DNA from: Escherichia phage T4
Direction: 5' to 3' (one strand)
Sequence record: OL964745.1
Length of the DNA stretch: 64,000 nucleotides
Part shown: piece after piece, positions 1 through 62,666 of the stretch
Numbering within the stretch: the stretch's first letter is position 1
How the letters are laid out: each line of letters opens with the position of its first letter
Program-made: the position numbers and the translations under genes
The notes under the pieces: model-generated
Told to the model about the DNA's origin: nothing
What the model saw: only the letters and a program-made list of their open reading frames with translations
The model's database searches: none

Positions 1-204
1 TTAATTCATATTACGCTTAATAACTTCAGCAACTTCTAGTAGTTCATCTTTAGTTGCGGTGTCGGATTGAATTTTATCTCTAATATCTTTAAAGCGGGTT
101 TTAAATTCTTCGGCTTCTCCCATATCGAAAAAGCGTTGAATGATTCTATATTCTCGATGAACTGCTTTATCAAAAAGTTCTAAATTTACTTTATATGATT
201 TCAT
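1..204 (-). CDS. rIIA.1: small early protein, rIIA.1-like (67 aa)
   Basis: Complete minus-strand ORF immediately downstream of gene 60; position matches T4 order. No functional motif recognised. Confidence 0.45.
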   Translation of the reverse strand: MKSYKVNLELFDKAVHREYRIIQRFFDMGEAEEFKTRFKDIRDKIQSDTATKDELLEVAEVIKRNMN

Positions 205-228
205 TTCAATATCCTCATTTGCCCAATT

Positions 229-259
229 AATTATACCACATCCTTGTGGTAAAGTAAAC
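229..259 (-). promoter_or_regulatory. sigma70-type T4 early promoter
   Basis: Minus strand reads GTTTAC (rc of 254-259), spacer, TGGTATAAT (rc of 230-238), upstream of the 1..204 ORF. Confidence 0.5.
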
Positions 260-791
260 TACTGGCTCATCCATTCTTTACGAAGGTCAGCATTATCTCC
301 CATGAGCATTTCAAAAAGCTCTTTCCAGTTCTCAGGAAGTTTAACAACATCATATACTGGGTTTTGAATCATCTCACGATATTCAGATTTTTCCAAAGAG
401 CCAAGTCCCTTAATATAACGGATGCTATGTTTAGGTAGAGCATCTTTGGCACTCTCATATTCAGCGACTGTATAAAACCATTCTTGTTTTTTACCGACCT
501 GAGCGATGATTACAGGAGTTTTGACAAAGCGAATTCGTCCTTGCTCAAACAATTCTGGCCAATTACTAAAAAATCCGAGCAGAGAAGGATAAATAGAACC
601 TAATCCAATAATCTCTTAATTATGAGGTATTTCTATAGATAGCCCGAAGGCTATCCATCGTGATCTGCGTCTGTCATAATAGCGACATTCGCATAGTTCA
701 TTGAAGAGGATTTAATAGAACGACGAACATTGTTCTGCAATTTATATTTTTTCATATCAACGCTAGAAGAATCAATTTTTACAAATTTCAT
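259..791 (-). CDS. 60: DNA topoisomerase II medium subunit gp60; two coding segments (654..791 and 259..603) joined by ribosomal bypass
   Basis: N-terminal 46 codons MKFVKIDSS...MTDADHDG end at GGA followed by UAG; coding resumes LGSIYPSLLGFFSNWPELFEQGRIRFVKTP...KGLGSLEKSEY. 46+114 = 160 codons. Confidence 0.92.
604..656 (-). promoter_or_regulatory. gene 60 translational bypass (hop) element
   Basis: Minus strand: take-off GGA (654-656), UAG (651-653), hairpin CCUUCGGG..., 47-nt gap, landing GGA (604-606), resume codon UUA (601-603). Confidence 0.88.
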
Positions 792-1590
792 TATACACCT
801 CATAGAACTTTTCATCAGGAATCCAACCGCGTTTAAATTCATTAAATGCTCGGCCGAATAATTTTGAATTCACAGTTATATTATTAACTGATTTCCATTT
901 AGCAACTCCCGTTCGTTTATAATGATCGGGGTCATATTTCGTGACGTACCATTCATATAAATTTGGTATTAATTTTACAGCCTCTGGATTTGTCGCTGAT
1001 TTATTATACCATGGTTTCGCTTTTTCAAGTTCAGCTGCTTTTGCAGTAGCAGCAACAGTATTTCCAATACCAACTAATTTTTCAGTTTTAATGCGTGGAT
1101 CATTAACATGAAGACGAAAAACTTCGCCCTTTTCATTTTTAAAGCATGTCATGCCTTTAATTCCAGGAAGCTTAACACCTTTATTAACACCGCACCATTC
1201 CTTTGGGTTAAATGATCCTTTAATTAATAAGGCGCATTTACCCGATTTAATACTTCTCATTAAAACTTTATCTTTCATAAAGTTTTTTGACCATTCAGAT
1301 ACTGCTCTTTGATGGTAAATTCTAGCAATTTCATATAATTTACTAGAACGTAAATATTTTTCAGTGTTTAACATTCTATTCATCGCATATGCCATTTCAC
1401 GATTACGATGAATTTTATATAGTAGAAAATGTGCTAAAAAGTGTTCACGAAAAGTCAGTTTCACCAAATTTTCTTTATCATCAGAACCTCCCATTGATCT
1501 TGGAAGGATATGATGAATTTCACCCTTAAATTTAGAAACGCGGGTTTTACCCCGCACTATTAAGTCATTATAGATTTTTTCGTAATTCAC
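772..1590 (-). CDS. mobA: HNH homing endonuclease, MobA-like, inserted between genes 39 and 60
   Basis: HNH motif EIHHILPRSMGGSDDKENLVKLTFREHFLAH; lies between the two topoisomerase genes. True start may be downstream of the first in-frame start. Confidence 0.7.
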   Translation of the reverse strand: MNYEKIYNDLIVRGKTRVSKFKGEIHHILPRSMGGSDDKENLVKLTFREHFLAHFLLYKIHRNREMAYAMNRMLNTEKYLRSSKLYEIARIYHQRAVSEWSKNFMKDKVLMRSIKSGKCALLIKGSFNPKEWCGVNKGVKLPGIKGMTCFKNEKGEVFRLHVNDPRIKTEKLVGIGNTVAATAKAAELEKAKPWYNKSATNPEAVKLIPNLYEWYVTKYDPDHYKRTGVAKWKSVNNITVNSKLFGRAFNEFKRGWIPDEKFYEVYNEICKN

Positions 1591-3121
1591 CTACTGTTAT
1601 CCATTTACCATTAATCTGTACTTCATCATTTTCATTTACGATAATTGTATCGCCATTTAGCTCGAAAGTAAACCACTCGCCATCTTCTTTTTCTTCAAAC
1701 GCTTTTTCACCGAGAACTAGACCAGTGATTGCGCAAATATCAAATAGTTCTTTGTTTTTAAGCATATCTGCATAAGACATACCCCAACTGTTGAGAACTT
1801 TACCACGCAATGGATAACCACCGTGAAGTTCTTTATCACGAACATCAATAAGATATCCGATAGCCGAATCACCCTCAGTCAAGAAAAGAGTAGTATCAGC
1901 ATCTTTACCGCAAAGATTCGCTTTGATATGTTTATGAACCTTAGCTTTAGAAGCCTTTTTAGCTGCTTTAGTTTCTGCTGCTTTTTCTGCCGCCAATTTA
2001 CGAGCCAAAGCAGCTTCAATAATCGGCATTAGAATTGCTTCATTATTTAGAATAGCACGTGAAATCTTTTTAGCATCAAGTTGAATATGACTACGAATTT
2101 CGCCAAATGGAGAAGTCAAACGCTCTTTAGTTTGAGAATCAAATCGCATGTTTTTCATATCACGAACAAACATAACGATAGTCAAACATTCTTTGACACG
2201 TGCTTTAGTCACATCAATTTTGAACTTACGTTTGATTTGTGGAATAAGGTCTTCACAAATATCATCCATAGCGCAGTCAATGTGATGGCCACCATTCTTA
2301 GTATGAATGTTATTGACGTATGTTAATTGACGAAAACCATCCGGTGAACGACCAACCGCAATAGAACAATTTTCTTGCTCTTGAACAATAGCATGTTCAT
2401 CATACTGCCGTGCATATTTCTTAAAATTGCCCTGAACCTTTTTACCATTAAAGGTAAATTGAATATCAGGATAAACTACAGCAAGTGTCTGGAGACGATC
2501 CAGTGTAATGTCAAGATAAACTTGGGACAGCTCATTAGTTTCAAATGACATAAAATCAGGAATGAAAGTAACACGAGTTCCTTTCCATTTTCCAGGAATA
2601 TCTTCCCATGATTTATTTTCCATGCCATTTGAACAACGAACTACAATATTATTTTGACCGTCGCCAGTTTCACCGACAAACATCACAGAAAAAATGTTTG
2701 TCAAACTAGAACCAACACCGTTCATACCGCCGGTGACGCGTTCTTTATCATCACCAAAGTTACCACCTGCTTTTGGAATAGTCCATGCGGCAACAGGACC
2801 AGGAATTTCTTCACCGGTAGGTGTTTTAACCATCGCTTGTGGAATACCGCGACCGTTATCTTCAACTGTTACTTGATTGTTTTTAATAGTAACATTAATT
2901 TTATTCGCGAATTTAAACTTAGTACGAATACCTTCATCTACTGAGTTATCGATAATTTCATCAATAAGCTTAACAAGACCAGGTACATACTGAACACTTT
3001 CCCATTTACCAAACATAAAGCGCTCATGCGTTTCATTAGCAGAAGAGCCAATGTACATGCCACTACGCTTTTTGATATGTTCAATATCGCTCAGAATTTT
3101 AATTTCATTCTTAATCATCAC
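1568..3121 (-). CDS. 39: DNA topoisomerase II large subunit gp39 (GyrB-like ATPase)
   Basis: 517-aa ORF with GHKL ATPase signatures (IIDNSVDEG, GRGIP, GxxGxG-like loop). Confidence 0.92.
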   Translation of the reverse strand: MMIKNEIKILSDIEHIKKRSGMYIGSSANETHERFMFGKWESVQYVPGLVKLIDEIIDNSVDEGIRTKFKFANKINVTIKNNQVTVEDNGRGIPQAMVKTPTGEEIPGPVAAWTIPKAGGNFGDDKERVTGGMNGVGSSLTNIFSVMFVGETGDGQNNIVVRCSNGMENKSWEDIPGKWKGTRVTFIPDFMSFETNELSQVYLDITLDRLQTLAVVYPDIQFTFNGKKVQGNFKKYARQYDEHAIVQEQENCSIAVGRSPDGFRQLTYVNNIHTKNGGHHIDCAMDDICEDLIPQIKRKFKIDVTKARVKECLTIVMFVRDMKNMRFDSQTKERLTSPFGEIRSHIQLDAKKISRAILNNEAILMPIIEAALARKLAAEKAAETKAAKKASKAKVHKHIKANLCGKDADTTLFLTEGDSAIGYLIDVRDKELHGGYPLRGKVLNSWGMSYADMLKNKELFDICAITGLVLGEKAFEEKEDGEWFTFELNGDTIIVNENDEVQINGKWITVGELRKNL

Positions 3122-3165
3122 TTATCCTCGTTTGGTTTCGGGAATATTATACTCCGGTAATCATA

Positions 3166-3191
3166 AAGCTAAAGGCCCGAAGGCCTTTTAT
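3166..3191 (-). terminator. UUCG-tetraloop hairpin
   Basis: Plus aaaggcccgaaggccttttattt; minus-strand RNA AAAGGCC-UUCG-GGCCUUU followed by a U-containing tract. Confidence 0.45.
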
Positions 3192-3446
3192 TTAAAACGA
3201 ATAGTTGAATCCTTAAAGAACAGCCCAGAACATACTGTTCCTTCTACTTTCTGCCCGGTAGGTCCAATAGCACGAAATCCAGTATGCTGGAAATCATTTT
3301 CAGAGCAACCGAACCAATTATATCCAGTGATTTCAATATTAGTAAAACCACTTGAAGACAAAACTTTGGTTGCATTATCAGCATCAGTACATCCTATTAA
3401 AGACACTGCTAATACTAATGCTGCAATAGAACGATTAATATTTCAT
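3188..3446 (-). pseudogene. small lipoprotein gene with frameshift between start codon and signal peptide
   Basis: ATG AAA TAT TAA at 3446 is out of frame with the downstream signal peptide and lipobox (..SIAALVLAVSLIGC TDAD..); restoring 2 nt (TATT to TATATT) gives one ORF. Confidence 0.4.
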
Positions 3447-3454
3447 AATTACCC

Positions 3455-3625
3455 TTTAAGCAAGTCGTAAAATCCACCATTCACATGCTTAGGAGCGGAA
3501 ACTAACCGAACAGCCAGCCGATGACAATCAGGACATACATCAGTATCTCTTTCAGAAATTTTCTTGATTTTTTCGTATTCTTTTGCACAGTCTTTGGATT
3601 GACATTTATAATCATAAAGCGGCAT
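3455..3625 (-). CDS. small zinc-ribbon protein (about 56 aa)
   Basis: Hand translation MPLYDYKCQSKDCAKEYEKIKKISERDTDVCPDCHRLAVRL...; two CxxC pairs; below the ORF-track size cut-off. Confidence 0.45.
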
Positions 3626-12604: not shown

Positions 12605-12633
12605 ATGAAAAAAGGACTCCCGAAGGAGTCCTT
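12605..12633 (-). terminator. rho-independent terminator after soc
   Basis: Minus RNA GGACUCC-UUCG-GGAGUCC followed by UUUUUU. Confidence 0.6.
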
Positions 12634-12914: not shown

Positions 12915-13505
12915 TTATACATCTTCTTTTCTGAATAAGTAAATTAAATTCTTAAGAGCCGAACTTGTTACATCATATTTTCCTTTAAGCGCCTTTACAA
13001 CCGGGCCTGTTGCTGGTTTACCTAAAGAAACCCATAACTCGTGTATTTCGCTTTTAAGTGGTTCATGCCAATGCGGTGCTTTTCTTTGCGCCCTTGAAGT
13101 TCCTTCTGAAATCTTTTTATTTCCGCCATTCGAATAAAACTTTTTCATTACTTCAGATTGCCGAGCTTTTCTTTCTGCCCTATTTTGGGCTATACGTTGT
13201 GAATTCTTCATCCGAGTTTTTGTTTCAGGATTGTTTAATCTAAGTTTATGTTCTAATCGTTGTTGCTCAGTCCATTTTCTTCCTTCTCCACCCTGACCAC
13301 CAGGAGAAATATTAATGCAAGTATCTGGGTGTTTACGTTTTAATGCAGATTAGCTCACGTTCAACTTCATATGATTTTTCTCTAGAACCATGGCATTTTG
13401 ACCATCGTATTTTATAATTATCCATACTTACGATATATGTTCCATAGTATTTTACCTGAACCCGGATATTTATCATTATATGGATTTACAATAAATGATT
13501 CATGT
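12915..13505 (-). pseudogene. segF: segF-like homing endonuclease remnant in at least three frames
   Basis: Fragments ..YPGSGKILWNIYRKYG*, MDNYKIRWSKCHGSREKSYEVERELICIKT*, and a 144-codon C-terminal frame with ISPGGQGGEGRKWTEQQRLEHK; resemble SegA/SegB. No intact GIY-YIG N-terminus. Confidence 0.45.
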
Positions 13506-13514
13506 TTCCCAGCG

Positions 13515-13540
13515 TACCAAAAGACGCCTTTCGGCGTCCT
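13515..13540 (-). terminator. hairpin terminator after gene 56
   Basis: Minus RNA GACGCC-GAAA-GGCGUC followed by UUUUGG. Confidence 0.55.
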
Positions 13541-13572
13541 AACTTTTACTATATGTTCTATAAAATTTTTGT

Positions 13573-14103
13573 TTAATATCCATTATCTTGACGTTCAAAA
13601 TTATGTTTGTTCTTCAGATAATAAAGTTTAAAGATTTCTTCCGCATTCATTCCAAGGCCAACAAACATATTTAATACGAAATGAAATATATCCACAAGCT
13701 CAAATTTAATTTCGAGCTGGTCTTCGGGGGACATTTCATCAATGCGTTTTTCTTGCGCTTCAATATAACGTGCTTTCCATTTTTTCCATACAGCAGAAGC
13801 TTCTTTTTCACCACGTGACATTTCACCAAGAGAAGTCAGAAGTTCGCGGAATTCATCATCAATACAGTCTTTTTGTTCACGCATCCAAGAAACAACATCA
13901 CCGGCAGTTTCTAATTTATCTGGATGATAGCAGTATTCGCGGACATTAGCCAAACGAATCTGTAAAGACCGCTGCATATCAAGCATAACTTGCAGCGGAT
14001 CTTTTTCATCACCGAGAATATCCCAGTATTCATTTTGAGCTTTATCAACACCTTCGATCAAATGAGCACATTCATTAAAGTGAGCCATTAGTTTTCCTTT
14101 CAA
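13573..14103 (-). CDS. 56: dCTP/dUTP pyrophosphatase gp56 (MazG-like)
   Basis: 176-aa all-alpha ORF at the T4 gene 56 position. Confidence 0.8.
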   Translation of the reverse strand: MKGKLMAHFNECAHLIEGVDKAQNEYWDILGDEKDPLQVMLDMQRSLQIRLANVREYCYHPDKLETAGDVVSWMREQKDCIDDEFRELLTSLGEMSRGEKEASAVWKKWKARYIEAQEKRIDEMSPEDQLEIKFELVDIFHFVLNMFVGLGMNAEEIFKLYYLKNKHNFERQDNGY

Positions 14104-14123
14104 TTCATTAATAAGTTAAATAA

Positions 14124-14920
<797 letters not shown>

Positions 14921-15220
14921 ATTCTCTCATTTATTGCAGCAAAAATGAATTATACAATTCTTCATCATATGTATTTGATAGTAATACTAACACGTTTTGC
15001 GATAAATATTAATTTAAAGGAGGATATGGTACAAAAATTAATGGCACTTGTTAATGCCATAAAAGGTAATAAGAAACGTATAGCTTTTACTTTCTGCTAT
15101 GGTAGGAATTTTACTCTGGAACTTTATTTTATCACCTGTTGCAATTGCACATGGTGTTAATATTCCAGTAGTTACTCTTGATACATTCGTAGATTTAGCA
15201 TTTGCTTTAGTTGGGTTAAT

Positions 15221-35158: not shown

Positions 35159-35940
35159 CTATAAAACGCTACGAATAGGCCCAAACATATCCATAAGCAA
35201 TTTTGCTTTTTCCAGATTGCACTTTTTAATATTAGACATGCATCCTTTAACGGATACAGCTGCGTCTTTAATTCTAGGAAATACTCGTAATAATTTTCCA
35301 GTAGTATCATATTGAAATACTGGCACATTTCTTTTCTGAGTTATCCCACGTAGATTTAGACATTTTTTGTTTAGTTGCATTAGACATCCTAGAGGGCTTT
35401 CCTATGTTATCAGAATAATATTTCCATTGAAATCCTCCAGCGGTTTTCCTTTTACCATCTACACATTGTTTAATTGAAGTTGAACAGCTATGACATATCT
35501 TCTGCAGCATCTGTAATACATCTATATTTGCGAATAAAATTTCCATTTAAATCATATTGATAAATTGGTTTTCCAGCATTTCGTCTAGCGTTAGACATGT
35601 ATTTATTATCATCTTTCCAGAACTCTTTCATGCTTTCCGATATTGAAGAAGATACAGCTGTTTTAATCCATCCATACATTATTATTTAGTCTTGTTCCGT
35701 CAGAACTATAACATCATACGAATAGCTAAAGCCAATTTAGGAAGTCTATAAATTTTAAATAATAAATGCGCGGTAAAATGTTCTTCTGGTGTCAAAAGAA
35801 CTAAATTAGTTTTATCATCTGTACCACCCATACATCTAGGAATTATATGATGTGTTTCAGTATAGTATGTCAAAAGACTTTTATCATTGCCTCTGTTTAG
35901 TCCTTTTTCGATCAGTAAATTATATGTTTAAATAATTCAT
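35159..35940 (-). pseudogene. mobB: HNH homing endonuclease remnant with tandem DNA-binding repeats (mobB-like)
   Basis: ATG at 35940 (MNYLNI*), then HNH motif TETHHIIPRCMGGTDDKTNLVLLTPEEHFTAHLL in another frame; three track ORFs carry repeats PIYQYDLNGNFIRKYRCITDAAEDM and PVFQYDTTGKLLRVFPRIKDAAV. Confidence 0.5.
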
Positions 35941-35967
35941 TTTAGTTTATTTTACCAAAAAATTTAT

Positions 35968-35992
35968 AAAGCAATAGGAGCCGAAGCTCCTA
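35968..35992 (-). terminator. UUCG hairpin
   Basis: Minus RNA GGAGC-UUCG-GCUCC. Confidence 0.4.
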
Positions 35993-44499: not shown

Positions 44500-44900
44500 T
44501 TCACGAAGGCTAATTACGAGTTTATATCCTTCCCAACCGCATATTCTTAAAAGGATATGTATGAATTTCTACTGTTTCCATACAAAGTAATGCGGTCTCT
44601 AATTGACGAGTTAGTGCTAGCAATTGAGAAAAATTTATTAATATTCTTTTGGTTAGTTTCTGGTGTAAAAAATCCATAATTCACAAATAGATACTTTATT
44701 TTTATCAAGTTCATATTCTTTTATGATAATCATATCAGAAGCCAAAGGATGAATTTGACGATAATCGCCAACATAATTTAGAAGCTGATTTTAGAATTTG
44801 CTTCTTGAAAAGTCTGAAATTACTAATCCAACGACGAGTAAAAATATTCTCAGGGTCTTCTTTATTATTGAGATGATAAGAATTAACATCACCGAACCAA

Positions 44901-45155
44901 TTATCCTACTACATCTTTAGTTCGTTTAATTTCTTTCCCAAAATTACCAAGAATATCCCGATTAACCAAATATGAAAGAAGACGAGACTCTTTAAAGGTT
45001 TTCTTGATAACATCTTTATCTACACGGCTAGAAATTTTACGAATTTCATGAATAAATTTAGTAGAAGAAACAATACTTGCATCAACACTATTGAGCCACT
45101 GATTGATAATAGAAAGAACGCTATTTTGGCCAAACATCGGTATAGCTATCATCAA
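44901..45155 (-). CDS. hypothetical protein (84 aa)
   Basis: ORF track. Confidence 0.35.
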   Translation of the reverse strand: MMIAIPMFGQNSVLSIINQWLNSVDASIVSSTKFIHEIRKISSRVDKDVIKKTFKESRLLSYLVNRDILGNFGKEIKRTKDVVG

Positions 45156-45221
45156 TAACGCTATTGAATGATTTGATATTCGTTACGAGTCATATTAATC
45201 TCCTCAGTAGAAAGTAAGAAC

Positions 45222-45252
45222 ATTATACCACATCCTTGTGGCAAAGTAAACT
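45222..45252 (-). promoter_or_regulatory. T4 early promoter
   Basis: Minus strand GTTTAC (rc 45247-45252) then TGGTATAAT (rc 45222-45230). Confidence 0.5.
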
Positions 45253-45511
45253 AGTTCAGTGCATTTAGTGCATTGTTCAGTTTAGAACGTTGCTTTGTCA
45301 GATTTTGAACCCTTGACTGAGCTTGTTCTAACGCCTTTTCAGCTTCTAGCACTTCATTGGTCGCTTTAACTAATTCAGCATCTACTGCCTTAAGAGACTT
45401 CTCAATCGCATCCGCGTGCCATTTTTCAACAGGTTTAAGACTTGGATTTTCAACAGGAAGAAAATTCACTTTATTGAATTTCCATGCATCTTTATTACCT
45501 GAGCTATACAT
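45251..45511 (-). CDS. hypothetical coiled-coil protein (86 aa)
   Basis: ORF track. Confidence 0.4.
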   Translation of the reverse strand: MYSSGNKDAWKFNKVNFLPVENPSLKPVEKWHADAIEKSLKAVDAELVKATNEVLEAEKALEQAQSRVQNLTKQRSKLNNALNALN

Positions 45512-45539
45512 CCAAAATTTAGGATCGTTTGATAAGTAA

Positions 45540-46271
45540 TTAGATATTTAAGTTATCTTGCACTTCTTGCTTTTTCTCTTGTGTGACTTCGTCCTTTCTC
45601 AAAAATTCATATTTAAATGAAACGATCATATCAAGTTCATATGATGTTGTATCTAACTTAAATCGTTCAAAACGAGGTAAAATCTTAGATTGAACAGCAG
45701 CAACAACATCCATATACTTAAATGCTTCTGTCAACTGCGATTTAAGGCATTCGCAAATTGAAAGAGAATTTTTTGTATTAGGTTTAAAGCTAATTCGTGC
45801 AGTTCTATTATTTTCTTTTAACGGTCTTACTTCCATCTGAAGAGTATAACCATCAAATTTCAGATTCTTTAAGTTAATGTCAGAGCCTTTTAATCGACTA
45901 GCAGTAGACAAAATTTGCTTTAATTGTCTACGGAACAGAGCAATAAATCTCCATTCAATACGATAATGATTTGGATTGAAAAATCCAGATGATAAATCGA
46001 CCTTACTTTGACCAACGCCTTGAACAAATAGAGGATTTTTATAATCAATAGTTTTACAGAAATCGGTGAGCTGTTCACGAGCAGTCATTTGAGTAATATA
46101 CCCTGCTTTACTAAAATTACGCACCCATTCACTGCTATTCGTATACTTAAAGTGATGAATAACACGATTAACTTTATCAGGGTCTAAATTATTTTCACAC
46201 AAAAATGTCATAACATCACGAGTATAGCTGGCATTACGAACCATATCTTCAATTTGAGAACGAGTTTTCAT
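45540..46271 (-). CDS. hypothetical protein (243 aa)
   Basis: ORF track. Confidence 0.5.
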   Translation of the reverse strand: MKTRSQIEDMVRNASYTRDVMTFLCENNLDPDKVNRVIHHFKYTNSSEWVRNFSKAGYITQMTAREQLTDFCKTIDYKNPLFVQGVGQSKVDLSSGFFNPNHYRIEWRFIALFRRQLKQILSTASRLKGSDINLKNLKFDGYTLQMEVRPLKENNRTARISFKPNTKNSLSICECLKSQLTEAFKYMDVVAAVQSKILPRFERFKLDTTSYELDMIVSFKYEFLRKDEVTQEKKQEVQDNLNI

Positions 46272-49680: not shown

Positions 49681-49708
49681 ATAAAAAAGGGAGCCCGAAG
49701 GCTCCCTA
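49681..49708 (-). terminator. UUCG hairpin terminator
   Basis: Minus RNA GGGAGCC-UUCG-GGCUCCC followed by UUUUUU. Confidence 0.6.
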
Positions 49709-51016: not shown

Positions 51017-51042
51017 GAAAAAAAGTCTCCCGAAGGAGACTA
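51017..51042 (-). terminator. UUCG hairpin terminator
   Basis: Minus RNA GUCUCC-UUCG-GGAGAC followed by UUUUUUU. Confidence 0.6.
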
Positions 51043-51722: not shown

Positions 51723-51980
51723 AAAGGCCTCCTATCATTTTTGTCCTGTATTTACTTTGTGCCGATGCACGGCCTTAACATCAAGGTATTTTTCAAAATT
51801 TCGCAATAGTATAGTCTGCCGGAGATTGGTTGAGTGATACTTCTCGACGCAAAGCTGAAATGATATTTCCAACTTCCCTACGAATTTCATCTAATTGAAG
51901 AACAGTAAGATTGCGAAGTTGCTTTTCAGTTAATTGTAGCATATACCCCTTTAGTTAGATACCTATTTATAACTTTTGCA

Positions 51981-52562
51981 CTAACCGAGCTTTTTAGTTA
52001 ATTCATTCCAATGTTTTCTACACAAAGAAACATAAATTTCATCACCAATACAAATTTGATTACCTTCTTTAACTGGTGTTCCATCTTCCATTAATCGAGC
52101 TGTCATAATCGCTTTTTTACCACAATGACAAACTGCTTTTAGTTCAATAAGTTTATCTGCAATCGCTAAAAGTTCTTTAGAACCTTCAAATAATTTTCCA
52201 GCGAAATCAGTCCTTAGCCCATAAGCCATAACAGGAACATTATATGTATCAACAATTCGGCTCAATTGATGCACCTGTTCAGTTTTTAAAAACTGAGCTT
52301 CATCTACAAATACGCAATGAATATCTTTTTGTGCTTCAGCCCATTTATAGAACTCGAAAATATCCATATCATCTGTAATAATATTCGCTTCCTGCTTAAT
52401 TCCAATGCGAGAAACGACTTCACAGACAGAATCGCGAGTATCAATAGCAGGCTTAAGAACTAATACACTCATTCCACGTTCTTTATAATTATGTGCAGCA
52501 GTCAAAAGAGAAGCAGATTTTCCAGCATTCATTGCTGCATAAGTAAAAATTAAACTCGCCAT
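51981..52562 (-). CDS. tk: thymidine kinase
   Basis: 193-aa ORF; P-loop YAAMNAGKS, FVDEAQF, zinc-ribbon CHCGKKA...C..H. Confidence 0.95.
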   Translation of the reverse strand: MASLIFTYAAMNAGKSASLLTAAHNYKERGMSVLVLKPAIDTRDSVCEVVSRIGIKQEANIITDDMDIFEFYKWAEAQKDIHCVFVDEAQFLKTEQVHQLSRIVDTYNVPVMAYGLRTDFAGKLFEGSKELLAIADKLIELKAVCHCGKKAIMTARLMEDGTPVKEGNQICIGDEIYVSLCRKHWNELTKKLG

Positions 52563-52563
52563 C

Positions 52564-52752
52564 TTAGTCCTTAGTTAAATTTTCTAAATATGTTTCTAAA
52601 TCATTTTCAGCTTTATCGATAGATTTTACTAATTCGTAATATGTTTCGGCATCTCCATATTCAGAAGATATTTCAAAAGACAAATCCTTTTCTAAACTAA
52701 TAATTTCACCAACTAAAAATAATATTTCGTTCTTTTGTTCGCGAGTAATCAT
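52564..52752 (-). CDS. hypothetical protein (62 aa)
   Basis: ORF track. Confidence 0.4.
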   Translation of the reverse strand: MITREQKNEILFLVGEIISLEKDLSFEISSEYGDAETYYELVKSIDKAENDLETYLENLTKD

Positions 52753-52940
52753 AAGGAATTTATATAATCAATGAGTTCTTGTTCTTTATTATCGAATTCT
52801 TTAGAAAGTTCTTCGTACTCGTTTGCGCTAAAAGGACCGCATTCATTACAAACTTTTTCCAATTCACTATTTTTATCCATAACTTCGTGGATAAGAGAAA
52901 AGAGTGTGTCTTTTTGTTCTTTGCTTAAACTCATAACCAT
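52749..52940 (-). CDS. hypothetical protein (63 aa)
   Basis: ORF track; paralogous to 52564..52752. Confidence 0.4.
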   Translation of the reverse strand: MVMSLSKEQKDTLFSLIHEVMDKNSELEKVCNECGPFSANEYEELSKEFDNKEQELIDYINSL

Positions 52941-52962
52941 GTCACCTTTAAGCAGTATTCTT

Positions 52963-53154
52963 CTACATGCTGTTTACGACCTTTCTTATCAATAAAGGTA
53001 TATTCAACGAATGTTCCAATGTAGTCTTATCTACATCATGTGGACTATTAATTGGACATTTAGTGCGACAAATGCGTTCCCATTGACGAATAATTACTGC
53101 CTTATTCTTTGGGTCATATGGATGTGGATAATGTATATTCATAATAGTTCCCAA
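52963..53154 (-). CDS. hypothetical protein (63 aa)
   Basis: ORF track. Confidence 0.35.
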   Translation of the reverse strand: MGTIMNIHYPHPYDPKNKAVIIRQWERICRTKCPINSPHDVDKTTLEHSLNIPLLIRKVVNSM

Positions 53155-53571
53155 TCAACAATCACAATTTCTAATTTAGAGGAATATGTATCTAAAATCC
53201 CCTCAATAATATCCCAGTTCCCTTTACCTATGCCTGCACCAATCCTAGGCATATAGATTGTAGGTTTAATCAGTTTATTTTCACCAAACTCATTTAATTC
53301 TAACATACAATTCATTAAAGCGGAATACTCAATTTGGCCCTGGTTGAAATTGAGTATAAAGATTGAAGCAGTAAGCTTTATGAGTCCTAAAGTATTTTTC
53401 ATAGACTGAGTAAGAACCGAGTTTAGTTACATCACCCCATTCAGTCTGTAATTTATCAGCTTCCAAAATTTTAGGGAAAGCTTTGGTTAATTGACCCGCT
53501 ACGCCTGAACCCATAGTATGAAAACAATTATCCATGTGCAATATTTTTACCTTCAGCGAAAAGGGCGACAA
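53139..53571 (-). pseudogene. macro-domain-like protein split into two overlapping frames
   Basis: 53329..53571 carries HTMGSGVAGQLTKAFP; 53139..53402 carries IYMPRIGAGIGKGNWDIIEGIL; 74-nt overlap in different frames. Confidence 0.4.
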
Positions 53572-53593
53572 TATCGCCCTTGATATTTTACAA

Positions 53594-56656: not shown

Positions 56657-57620
<964 letters not shown>

Positions 57621-57793
57621 TTTAATTTCCTGCATTCAGTGATAAAGTTATTTAAATTTTGAGCATATTTCTTTTCATCAAAAATCTTTTGCTGTCTGCG
57701 TAACCGCCATGGCATTTCAATGAACATACGCCATATTCCTGATAATACTGCTGCTGTAAAAATATTAACAAGTAGTTAAAAGAATCCAATCGC

Positions 57794-61314: not shown

Positions 61315-61389
61315 TGGTATCCCGCCCTGGGATCGAACCAGGACCGCAAACTTAGAAGGATCGTATGCTATCCATTACACCAGCGGGAC
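61315..61389 (-). tRNA. tRNA-Arg (anticodon UCU)
   Basis: rc gives GTCCCGCTGGTGTAATGGATAGCATACGATCCTTCTAAGTTTGCGGTCCTGGTTCGATCCCAGGGCGGGATACCA; loop CUUCUAA. Confidence 0.8.
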
Positions 61390-61711
61390 GTAATTTAAAA
61401 TTTCATTTTTCGACCTTTAAACCATCCTTCTGGAATTGGGTCAGTTTTCTTAATACGTTTAGAAACTTTTTCATCTAATGAATGAATCCACATCATACCG
61501 AATTGGGAATTCTTTTCACCTTTCTGGTGATTATTTTTGGCGTGAGATTCTTTCATTTTATTAATAGTTTCAGGAGTATGATGCTTATTTAGATCTGCTA
61601 TTATTTAAAAATTTTTCCCTGTATTCAGGAGTTGACCACAAACGTTTAAATACATTTGAACCAATTTTACGATATTTTTCTTGAAGTAAAATATCATTTT
61701 CAAAACGTGAC

Positions 61712-62052
61712 TTAAACGATAGCTCCTTTTAAGCTAGCATCTTTCTTCTGGTTTAGCATTCCAGGAATATTTACATGATCCCATCCACCTTCACCGCCAA
61801 GTTTTAAATTATACACATCTGGTCTATTTAAAAACTCTTCTGTGACAATATTTTTCTCGGCTTCAAGCATAGATTCTTTATCGTCAAAATACTCTAATAT
61901 TTCTTTAGAAAAATTTTCTATACCATATTTATCTTGGGCTCTTTTTAATAATTTACCAGAACCCATATCCATCATCTAAATTTTCGGTAGAATGCACACC
62001 AATATAAATTTTATTATTAATTTTATTTGTTATTTTATAAGTGTAATAGAAC
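61712..62052 (-). pseudogene. segB: GIY-YIG homing endonuclease SegB-like, frameshifted, inside the tRNA cluster
   Basis: MFYYTYKITNKINNKIYIGVHSTENLDDGY then out of frame into MGSGKLLKRAQDKYG...YNLKLGGEGG (track ORF 61712..61975); TATATG reads TATG at about 61964-61967. Confidence 0.7.
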
Positions 62053-62095
62053 ATAAATATCTCCTATTTCTAAGAGTATTTATGTTCTCAAAATA

Positions 62096-62169
62096 TGACC
62101 CAGACCAGATTTGAACTGGTAACCTTTCCCTTATGAGGGGACTGCTGCTAACCATTGAGCTACAGGGCC
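62096..62169 (-). tRNA. tRNA-Ile (anticodon CAU)
   Basis: Cloverleaf with loop CUCAUAA; T-arm ACCAG-UUCAAAU-CUGGU. Confidence 0.75.
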
Positions 62170-62170
62170 T

Positions 62171-62246
62171 TGGTGCTGATTGACGGAATCGAACCGCCGA
62201 CATCCTCATTACAAGTGAGGTGCTCTACCTACTGAGCTAAATCAGC
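62171..62246 (-). tRNA. tRNA-Thr (anticodon UGU)
   Basis: GCTGATTTAGCTCAGTAGGTAGAGCACCTCACTTGTAATGAGG...GGTTCGATTCC...AATCAGCACCA. Confidence 0.85.
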
Positions 62247-62253
62247 AAAATTA

Positions 62254-62340
62254 CGGAGGCGATAGGATTTGAACCTATGAGTCGCCGGAGCGACTGCCGG
62301 TTTTCAAGACCGGTGCATTAAACCACTCTGCCACGCCTCC
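62254..62340 (-). tRNA. tRNA-Ser (anticodon UGA)
   Basis: GGAGGCGTGGCAGAGTGG...CCGGTCTTGAAAACCGG... long variable arm ...GGTTCAAATCC...CGCCTCCG. Confidence 0.85.
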
Positions 62341-62342
62341 AG

Positions 62343-62416
62343 TCTCCATACAAGGATTTGAACCTTGGACCTCCTGATCCCAAATCAGGCGCTCTACCAA
62401 ACTGAGCTACACGGAG
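62343..62416 (-). tRNA. tRNA-Pro (anticodon UGG)
   Basis: Anticodon arm CCTGA-TTTGGGA-TCAGG; T-loop GGTTCAAATCC. Confidence 0.8.
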
Positions 62417-62426
62417 TAAATTAAAT

Positions 62427-62500
<74 letters not shown>

Positions 62501-62505
62501 AAATT

Positions 62506-62592
62506 TGGTGCGAGAAGTGGGACTCGAACCCACAAGGAAATCATTCCGCAGCATTTTAAGTGCTGTGCCTTTACCAATTTGACCATTCTCGC
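62506..62592 (-). tRNA. tRNA-Leu (anticodon UAA)
   Basis: GCGAGAATGGTCAAATTGGTAAAGGCACAGCACTTAAAATGCTG... long variable arm ...GGTTCGAGTCC...CTCGCACCA. Confidence 0.85.
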
Positions 62593-62593
62593 G

Positions 62594-62666
62594 CTGGGAA
62601 TAAAGGACTCGAACCTTTGCATCTAGCAGTCAAAGTGCTATGCCTTACCAACTTGGCTAATTCCCA
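62594..62666 (-). tRNA. tRNA-Gln (anticodon UUG)
   Basis: TGGGAATTAGCCAAGTTGGTAAGGCATAGCACTTTGACTGCTA...GGTTCGAGTCC...ATTCCCAG. Confidence 0.85.

Follow-up and report, generated by a model that had tools for sequence, protein, structure and literature searches.

Whether two separate open reading frames on the minus strand of a phage genome are in fact one gene, and how ribosomes might pass from the first to the second across an intervening stop codon, is the question raised by the locus at 259..791 of a 64,000-nucleotide stretch of sequence record OL964745.1 (the window). Programmed translational bypassing has its founding example in gene 60 of bacteriophage T4, which is also a main model for movement of the ribosome without decoding; the bypass of this gene has reportedly been studied by Huang et al. 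in 1988, Weiss et al. in 1990, Samatova in 2014, Chen in 2015 and Agirrezabala in 2017. Compared with the element of those studies, the one in the window differs in nothing, the distinctive feature being its carrier genome, which belongs to a genome-reduced laboratory mutant lineage. A preliminary description, made from the letters of the window alone, had taken the locus for this well-described element, and the match to the published T4 gene 60 bypass was borne out. The feature is almost certainly phage T4 gene 60 with its programmed translational bypass, the ribosomal steps being drawn from published work. As such the element is already known, and its finding adds no new biology.

Identity to T4 and the gene 60 product

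Positions 200..900 of the window are 100% identical to 13 T4 records, including AF158101.6, NC_000866.4 and T4T; this is the outcome of the alignment to T4 gene 60 that had been proposed as a check. Identity to T4T extends over 1..3437, and because the first difference is found only at 3438, rIIA.1, gene 60, mobA and gene 39 are all identical to their T4T counterparts. The window is recognised as T4 by an identity of 100% across 3.4 kb and of 99.8% across 25 kb. The take-off codon GGA, the UAG, the hairpin and the landing codon GGA had been described as exactly those of the classic T4 case, and every one of them is present and identical to T4. No difference in the take-off codon, the stop or the hairpin, of the kind that would abolish bypass, was found, the element being letter-for-letter that of T4.

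An artefact of sequencing or assembly would be conceivable in a window with many small deletions relative to T4 elsewhere. However, there is no difference to T4T within 1..3437, and the 81-nt core of the element is identical in 28 independent records, which makes such an origin of the interruption extremely improbable.

The 160-aa protein obtained by splicing the two parts shows 100% identity to residues 517-676 of the solved T4 topoisomerase II gp39-gp60 (PDB 8yo3 and four further entries), which upholds the earlier claim that the two open reading frames listed by the program (651..842 and 259..552) are one gene. The first 46 residues of gp60 are identical to 5np6_C, the nascent chain of the cryo-EM take-off complex. 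The protein scored 33.3 bits against the Pfam TOPRIM_C domain (cut-off 29), and it matched PHROG 7229 (DNA topoisomerase II) with an E-value of 2.4e-81.

Anatomy of gene 60

Gene 60, encoding the 160-aa DNA topoisomerase II subunit gp60, occupies 259..791 on the minus strand and is read in two frames, 791..654 and 603..259. The start codon ATG at 791..789 is preceded by a Shine-Dalgarno sequence GAGG (799..802), located 7 nt 5' of the ATG within the 3' end of mobA. The first part, ORF1 (654..791), consists of codons 1-46 with the translation MKFVKIDSSSVDMKKYKLQNNVRRSIKSSSMNYANVAIMTDADHDG, the nascent peptide that would signal bypass from the exit tunnel. It ends in the take-off codon GGA (Gly46, 654..656), directly followed by a UAG stop at 651..653. 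The second part, ORF2 (259..603), extends from the resume codon UUA (Leu47, 603..601) to the TAG at 261..259, comprising 114 codons and the stop, and its translation begins LGSIYPSLLGFF..., i.e. LGSIYPS... The junction peptide obtained by translation is ...DADHDG|LGSIYPSLLGFFSNWPELFEQGR, and the translations of ORF1 and ORF2 show that the junction ...DADHDG-LGSIYPS... had been predicted correctly.

Between the two parts lies a coding gap of 50 nt (604..653), transcribed without being translated and annotated as a misc_feature in both T4 and T4T. By convention the gap is counted from the UAG through the landing GGA (653..604), while the strict spacing between the UAG and the landing codon is 44 nt. 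The 47 nt given in the preliminary description is obtained if counting begins after the UAG and runs through the landing GGA; it corresponds neither to the conventional gap length nor to the strict spacing. The landing codon GGA (604..606) is not decoded a second time. It is preceded at a distance of 6 nt (AUUAUU) by a Shine-Dalgarno-like GAG (613..615), which lies inside the invariant motif AGAGAU.

Stop-codon read-through and frameshifting are recoding events much commoner than bypassing, and a combination of the two, rather than a long hop, might be thought to carry ribosomes across the gap. Against this, the zero frame contains, besides the UAG at 653..651, two further in-frame UAG codons (635..633 and 602..600), and the frame of ORF2 is closed by a UAA (618..616) upstream of the landing site. 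Moreover, the gaps of related elements are 48, 50 and 51 nt long, with no consistent frame relation, and read-through has been reported to be negligible (PMC5462505). Crossing by read-through and frameshifting is therefore vanishingly unlikely, and bypass of the gap as a whole is the preferred reading.

The open reading frames called by the program differ from the actual coding parts at both sides of the gap. The one at 651..842 is over-extended, beginning at an upstream in-frame ATG inside mobA instead of the true start at 791, and the one at 259..552 is under-extended, beginning at an internal TTG where true coding resumes at 603. The T4T annotation, transferred to window coordinates, gives a CDS joined from 259..603 and 654..791 and a misc_feature 'non-coding translational bypass region' at 604..653, and the annotations of T4 and HY01 put the join and the bypass feature at the same place. 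Several database records for gene 60 carry two CDSs, or ORF2 alone.

The bare pattern GGAUAG-N44-GGA arises in 17% of window shuffles, so the codons alone prove little, and the case rests on the full set of features together with the identity to T4. As a separate observation, the sequence itself offers nothing against a reading as gene 60 with bypass.

Hairpins, nascent-peptide signal and other bypass signals

The take-off stem-loop (635..658, minus strand) has a 10-bp stem and a UUCG tetraloop, with the take-off GGA and the UAG contained in its 5' arm. The 5' arm AUGGAUAGCC occupies 658..649, the loop 648..645, and the 3' arm GGCUAUCUAU 644..635; the sequence CCUUCGGG (650..643) forms the tip. 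The predicted fold has a free energy of -14.7 kcal/mol (z = -5.1), and none of 200 shuffled sequences was as stable. In an alignment of seven distinct natural sequences, 100% of the cells of the stem are paired, compared with 26-40% if the partner is slid by 1-3 columns. Covariation among the seven sequences (A-U, U-A, G-C) is seen at the pair in which the third take-off base takes part, and two more pairs of the stem alternate between G-U and G-C. With so few sequences (n=7) the covariation statistics are modest, 5 of 500 shuffles reaching the score, and their direction is clear.

A second stem-loop is predicted upstream of the take-off hairpin, at 666..693 on the minus strand. The minimum free energy (MFE) fold of 660..700, which contains this 5' stem-loop, has -10.7 kcal/mol (z = -2.35), and the same hairpin is formed within a 123-nt fold. 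A role of the 5' stem-loop in bypass has been described (Manning and Atkins 2022, PMC7026636), and it is kept only within the T4 clade according to Manning and Atkins (2022). For the published 3' stem-loop following the landing codon, the MFE fold of 603..545 was no better than random (z = +1.1). The sequence of the window is identical to that in which the 5' and 3' stem-loops were mapped experimentally. The SD-like GAG has been assigned a role in landing (Manning and Atkins 2022, PMC3014915).

The nascent-peptide residues K5, I6, Y16, R24, S28, Y33, M39, T40 and H44, known from a published list of contacts (PMC5462505), are all present in ORF1. The central part of the nascent-peptide signal is formed by codons 14-29 (705..752, minus strand), translated as KYKLQNNVRRSIKSSS, for which a role in the bypass signal has been reported (Manning and Atkins 2022, PMC5462505). 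Within this part, Y16, Q19, V22 and R24 are invariant in an alignment of the T4, Salmonella phage S16 and Proteus-phage copies.

An Rfam scan of 1..3500 at E-values up to 1 revealed no family for the bypass element and no intron, the only hits being two chance matches, TeloSII_ncR30 and HOTTIP_2. A scan for sigma-70 promoters, which is uninformative for T4 middle or late promoters, found 8 sites in comparison with 12.5 in shuffled sequences, and nothing convincing just upstream of gene 60.

The Rfam result bears on the possibility that a small intron or an editing event takes the 50 nt out of the RNA, leaving the ribosome an uninterrupted message. Self-splicing group I introns do occur in T4, that of nrdD in the window among them, and the spliced protein sequence alone would fit removal at the RNA level or at the ribosome equally well. 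However, neither an intron nor any other relevant family was matched in the scanned region, and a group I intron is far larger than 50 nt. The segment is transcribed and persists in the mRNA, as stated in PMC3014915 and in PMC7026636, the latter citing Huang et al. (1988). In addition, bypass has been reconstituted in vitro with unspliced mRNA and purified ribosomes, and a take-off complex has been visualised by cryo-EM (PMC7026636, PMC5462505). Removal of the gap from the RNA is thus very unlikely compared with its bypass by the ribosome.

The mobile cassette, mobA and gene 39

Comparison by blastn with T2 (AP018813) delimited the insertion in which the gap is located. The MobA mobile cassette of 1106 nt spans 595..1700 (minus strand) and replaces 64 nt of T2 (2783..2846). 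On its two sides, the DNA of T2 agrees with that of the window at 96% identity as far as 1701 and at 98.8% from 594 on, and at the DNA level ORF2 is 98.8% identical to the 3' end of T2 gene 39. The cassette comprises a C-terminal extension of gp39, mobA, an N-terminal extension of gp60, the segment HomR, the 50-nt gap and 9 further nt. HomR (655..700, minus strand, MNYANVAIMTDADHDG) is a cassette copy of a topoisomerase segment, a concept introduced by Manning and Atkins (2022); it replaces the deleted T2 segment, to whose DNA it is only 76% identical. The 9 cassette-derived nt after the gap read UUA GGU UCU, versus CUA GGA AGC in T2.

The mobA gene (772..1590, minus strand) is an intact open reading frame for a 272-aa HNH homing endonuclease, identified by the T4T annotation and by PHROG. 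It overlaps the start of gene 60 by 20 nt and the end of gene 39 by 23 nt. Its product scored 20.1 bits with the Pfam HNH profile, just below the cut-off of 21.4, and the assignment was settled by the match to PHROG 655 (homing endonuclease, E = 2.2e-57). While mobA is intact at 272 aa in the window and in T4T, it is treated as a pseudogene in the old reference AF158101.6 and, following that record, in the Manning and Atkins preprint. Gene 39 (1568..3118, minus strand) encodes the N-terminal ATPase part of the split large subunit of topoisomerase II, with the Pfam domains DNA_gyraseB and HATPase_c, and ends in a cassette-encoded extension of ~43 aa.

Manning and Atkins (2022) described the MobA element as 1097-1106 nt long, with a 64-nt deletion, CTE, NTE and HomR, and with 9 extra nt in clade 1, which corresponds to the Tequatrovirus of E. 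coli. The cassette of the window shares with this family (Bonocora et al. 2011; Manning and Atkins 2022) the topoisomerase site, the parts and the 64-nt deletion of clade 1. The gap forms the 3' end of the cassette, whose insertion divided one ancestral topoisomerase gene into the present genes 39 and 60. The gap is reported to destroy the MobA target site, whereby the carrier genome is protected, in the work of Bonocora et al. (2011) as cited in Manning and Atkins (2022) and PMC7026636, and MobA is reported there to nick targets that are free of the cassette; judging from such published experiments on the identical sequence, the gap of the window would likewise provide immunity to MobA.

In T2 and RB14 the topoisomerase is encoded by a single uninterrupted gene of 605 aa. 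In an alignment the 50-nt gap is absent from these genes, which read ...IMTDADHDGLGSIYPS... straight across the gap site; in T2 the protein runs ...NYHNIAIMTDADHDG LGSIYPS... without interruption. This comparison bears on the alternative that gene 60 is simply broken, giving a 46-aa peptide, with ORF2 either silent or translated on its own from a start codon within it (for example TTG 552). A broken gene would agree with the two separate open reading frames yielded by the program, with the divided or ORF2-only database records, and with the fact that about half of the ribosomes do stop at the 46-aa product (Manning and Atkins 2022, PMC7026636). However, the Toprim motif IMTDADHDG-(L)GSIYP, continuous in T2, is split exactly at the gap, and residues 47-63, encoded ahead of TTG 552, show 100% conservation relative to T2, while neither a start codon nor an SD is present at 603. 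In three genera the take-off and landing codons still match, one tRNA reading both, even though the codons themselves differ, and mass spectrometry found a single full-length bypass product (Manning and Atkins 2022). A broken gene is accordingly highly improbable, and a functional gene 60 read by bypass remains the preferred interpretation.

Splicing, a broken gene, read-through with frameshifting and a sequencing artefact were the four alternatives considered, and all were rejected.

Distribution and relatives of the element

The 701-nt query was matched by 498 records of the phage collection, only 41 of which contain all of it; most T-even relatives therefore are without the cassette. A query of 81 nt centred on the gap found the same 41 records at >=97.5% identity and, in addition, 11 diverged copies at 77-82%. 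Among the 41 carriers, ~16 are T4 or T4-derived and ~25 are other Tequatrovirus phages of Escherichia, Shigella and Salmonella, including HY01, HY03, vB_EcoM_112 and Salmonella phage Manna. The use of the element as a landmark of T4 identity, put forward in the preliminary description, is consequently justified only in part: the element is identical to that of T4, but it is not T4-specific, and as judged from these sequence matches the element alone would not confirm that a genome is T4.

Small variations were observed within the T4 clade. In HY01, ELT1 and G50 one G-U pair of the hairpin is changed to G-C, HY01 and ELT1 are without the second in-frame UAG, and in GRNsp7 the spacer from the GAG to the landing GGA is longer by one U.

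The diverged copies belong to Salmonella phage S16 (Gelderlandvirus) and to the Proteus phages SJ_PmiM, PM2 and Pm5461 (Bragavirus). Their cassettes share the order found in T4, namely gene 39, HNH endonuclease, ORF1, gap and ORF2. In place of the GGA/GGA take-off and landing codons and the 50-nt gap of T4, S16 has GGU/GGC with a gap of 48 nt, and the Proteus phages have GGG/GGA with a gap of 51 nt. Alignments of the T4, S16 and Proteus-phage copies show that the UAG, the CC-UUCG-GG tip, ACCUCA and AGAGAU are invariant, and the hairpins of S16 and the Proteus phages are fully paired, with compensatory change. Both keep Y16, Q19, V22, R24, Y33, M39 and T40 of the T4 nascent peptide, whereas His44 of T4 is replaced by Val, at a core identity of 77-82%. 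The matched codon pairs and the compensatory hairpin change of these relatives have already been published by Manning and Atkins (2022).

A protein-guided scan of IMG/VR returned 57 loci, 55 of which are uninterrupted genes. Of the two interrupted ones, L050 is Proteus phage Pm5461, and L063, with a short 17-nt GAC/GAC hop, apparently belongs to an Aeromonas-type clade, so that the scan was a poor source of additional hairpin diversity.

A comparable phenomenon is known from the mitochondria of Magnusiomyces capitatus, whose 'byp' elements (Lang et al. 2014) resemble T4 gene 60 in having matched take-off and landing codons and a take-off hairpin. The poorly decodable A-site codon is an unassigned sense codon in 'byp' and the UAG stop in T4; further, 'byp' elements occur as dozens of inserts of 27-55 nt, without a linked homing endonuclease and unrelated in sequence to T4. 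The resemblance is described in Manning and Atkins (2022) and PMC7026636. The 'byp' elements are not of the same family as the T4 gene 60 bypass.

Proposed mechanism of bypass

The anatomy and identity of the element, the boundaries of the insertion relative to T2, the fold and covariation of the hairpin, the matched codons and the identity of the product come from the present analysis, and the ribosomal steps are taken from published experiments on the identical sequence (PMC7026636, PMC5462505, PMC3014915, Manning and Atkins 2022). Operation of the bypass on gene 60 of the window is inferred from its 100% identity to the sequence studied and to the gp60 of PDB 8yo3.

According to this model, ribosomes would translate from the ATG at 791 through 46 codons, slowing down and finally pausing on GGA46. 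The stalled ribosome would hold peptidyl-tRNA-Gly on the GGA at 656..654, with the UAG in the A site. Through Y16, R24, S28, Y33, M39, T40 and H44 the nascent peptide would contact L22, L4 and 23S rRNA, and this grip in the exit tunnel would anchor the peptidyl-tRNA while the peptidyl-transferase centre stays inactive. The tip of the take-off hairpin (CC-UUCG-GG) would fold in the A site, hindering release factor 1, and codon-anticodon pairing would dissolve. Sliding over 50 nt, in a hyper-rotated or rolled state, would be driven by EF-G and GTP hydrolysis and assisted by refolding of the upstream mRNA. Near the landing site the GAG would pair with the anti-SD, the same peptidyl-tRNA-Gly would re-pair at the GGA at 606..604, and decoding would restart at the UUA at 603. 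The expected outcome is one 160-aa subunit of topoisomerase II from about 50-60% of ribosomes, in line with the published finding that this fraction finishes the full protein and that about half end as the 46-aa product (Manning and Atkins 2022, PMC7026636).

Genome-reduced background and tRNA context

The window belongs to a genome-reduced mutant T4 lineage and is not wild type. Relative to T4T it lacks ~457 bp (motB.2), ~2045 bp (nrdG, mobC, nrdD), ~905 bp (nrdC.3), 2046 bp (nrdC.11, mobD, mobD.1) and 2046 bp (vs.3 to vs.8), in addition to ~70 small deletions (1-4 nt) that are concentrated in non-essential genes; no lesion touches 1..3437. Its first position coincides with that of MZ375356.1 ('Mutant Escherichia phage T4 clone T4_583L'), with which it has most of the micro-deletions in common. 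T4_583L comes from a study of iterative genome reduction with CRISPR/Cas9 (Yuan et al. 2022, PMC9825161), and since the starting base and most of the micro-deletions match this clone, the window most likely represents a sibling or intermediate clone of the same work.

Two of T4's own tRNAs are encoded in the window: tRNA-Gly(UCC) (62427..62500), which is cognate to GGA, the codon of take-off and landing, and tRNA-Leu(UAA) (62506..62592), which is cognate to the resume codon UUA. T2 uses GGU and CUA where T4 has GGA for take-off and landing and UUA for resumption. Because T4 encodes the cognate tRNAs and T2 has other codons, the clade-1 cassette may be tuned to phage tRNAs, in which case the efficiency of bypass in infected cells may depend on the phage tRNA cluster. 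In a sibling genome-reduced mutant 284 bp of mobA are lost and gene 60 is untouched; the loss of part of mobA with retention of gene 60 suggests, as a second possibility, that bypass is maintained solely through selection for gp60 when the phage can spare the endonuclease. Taken jointly, tuning to phage tRNAs and selection for gp60 alone make up an improbable reading of the context.

Implications

The gene 60 element anchors the window as T4 (coordinates ~2200 onward). The interrupted anatomy explains why gene 60 appears split or truncated in automatic calls of open reading frames and in many GenBank records, and the gene can be used as a positive control for the detection of recoding signals. 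Finally, the matched but differing codon pairs and the compensatory change in the hairpin independently reproduce the evolutionary support for the bypass presented in the 2022 preprint.

Genome background of the sequenced phage

Comparison with the annotated T4 genome T4T shows that the sequence in the window is not that of wild-type T4. Five larger deletions relative to T4T are located at window positions about 5482, 40057, 44154/5, 49827/8 and 54996/7; they comprise deletions of about 457 bp at motB.2, about 2045 bp at nrdG, mobC and nrdD, about 905 bp at nrdC.3, 2046 bp at nrdC.11, mobD and mobD.1, and 2046 bp at vs.3 to vs.8. Three of the five are of nearly equal size (about 2046 bp). In addition, about 70 micro-deletions of 1-4 nt were found relative to T4T, clustering in non-essential genes, such as mobB, nrdC.4, segF, dam, rI.1, tk.3/tk.4, nudE and mrh (for example, at 3438, 4412, 4916, 6356, 13349-15091, 35218-35974, 44541-45546, 51780-53583 and 57234-57773).

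Most of these micro-deletions are shared with T4_583L (MZ375356.1), a mutant T4 clone that the CiPGr study of genome reduction produced (PMC9825161). The first base of the window is also the first base of that record. The sequenced genome is probably a sibling clone of T4_583L.

Two of the micro-deletions, at positions 14919 and 15024 (17610 and 17718 in T4T), fall in the spacers that separate the Shine-Dalgarno sequences of dam and dam.1 from their start codons, changing GAGAATATAATG to GAGAATATG at dam and AGGAGGATATATATG to AGGAGGATATG at dam.1. Such changes would affect the spacing for translation initiation, leaving the reading frame unaltered.

mobA and gene 60 in database records

The mobA gene (772..1590), encoding an HNH homing endonuclease upstream of gene 60, is an unbroken open reading frame of 272 amino acids in both the window and T4T. 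In the older T4 reference, AF158101.6, the gene departs from this sequence at 15 sites (window 1068..1474), mostly by additional single G's, and because of these differences it is annotated there as 'MobA pseudogene' and 'gp60.1'. A 2022 preprint considered mobA to be pseudogenised in laboratory T4 (Manning and Atkins 2022); this statement may originate from old sequencing errors. In T4_583L, 284 bp of mobA (window 869..1152) have been lost, while gene 60 and its gap are intact.

Gene 60 (259..791, minus strand) is wrongly annotated in many GenBank records, including MZ375356.1, ON720975.1, MK327942.1, MZ892903.1, HQ331142.1, MW367898.1 and others. Some records contain ORF2 alone, begun at an internal TTG; others present two separate 'topoisomerase' CDSs, or name parts of the gene 'hypothetical protein' or 'frameshift'. 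Mechanical ORF tracks contain the same errors.

Bypass elements in related phages

Within the T4 clade, Salmonella phage GRNsp7 (locus L067:191-288) has one more U between GAG and the landing GGA, resulting in a 51-nt gap and 7-nt spacing. One G-U pair of the stem is replaced by G-C in HY01, ELT1 and G50, and the second in-frame UAG is absent (UAG to UUG) from HY01 and ELT1 (loci L069 and L070).

Diverged bypass cassettes were found in phages of two further genera, namely Salmonella phage S16 (L004:2480-2575) and Proteus phages SJ_PmiM, PM2 and Pm5461 (L005, L006, L007:2480-2578). Their hairpins carry a compensatory change at the position facing the third nucleotide of the take-off codon, and the bypass genes are entered in database records as two separate CDSs. 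These cassettes are already known, having been described by Manning and Atkins (2022).

A candidate for a much shorter hop is present at the equivalent position of a 165.8-kb contig (IMG/VR UViG 2974724359; L063:2480-3000), with the layout ...MTDADPD GAC-UAG-CGGGGUUAAUC-GAC GGU CAA GGU UCA. The Asp codon GAC would serve for both take-off and landing across a gap counted as 17 nt, with a merely rudimentary hairpin. This candidate resembles the Aeromonas clade of the preprint, where the gap is about 20 nt (Manning and Atkins 2022).

Codons and hairpin motif of the gene 60 element

The T4 tRNA cluster within the window comprises eight tRNAs (61315..62666). Among them, on the minus strand, tRNA-Gly(UCC) (62427..62500) is cognate to GGA, the take-off (654..656) and landing (604..606) codon of gene 60, and tRNA-Leu(UAA) (62506..62592) to the resume codon UUA (601..603). 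In T2, which has an uninterrupted topoisomerase gene, the matching codons are GGU and CUA instead of GGA and UUA.

C(UUCG)G hairpins are a known repeated feature of T4 transcripts. The 8-mer CCUUCGGG occurs five times in the window against 0.45 expected by chance (643..650, 3176..3183, 12619..12626, 49694..49701 and 51029..51036, all on the minus strand), always on the sense strand of early genes. These five occurrences are consistent with the known recurrence of such hairpins, and the motif by itself is therefore not specific for the bypass element.
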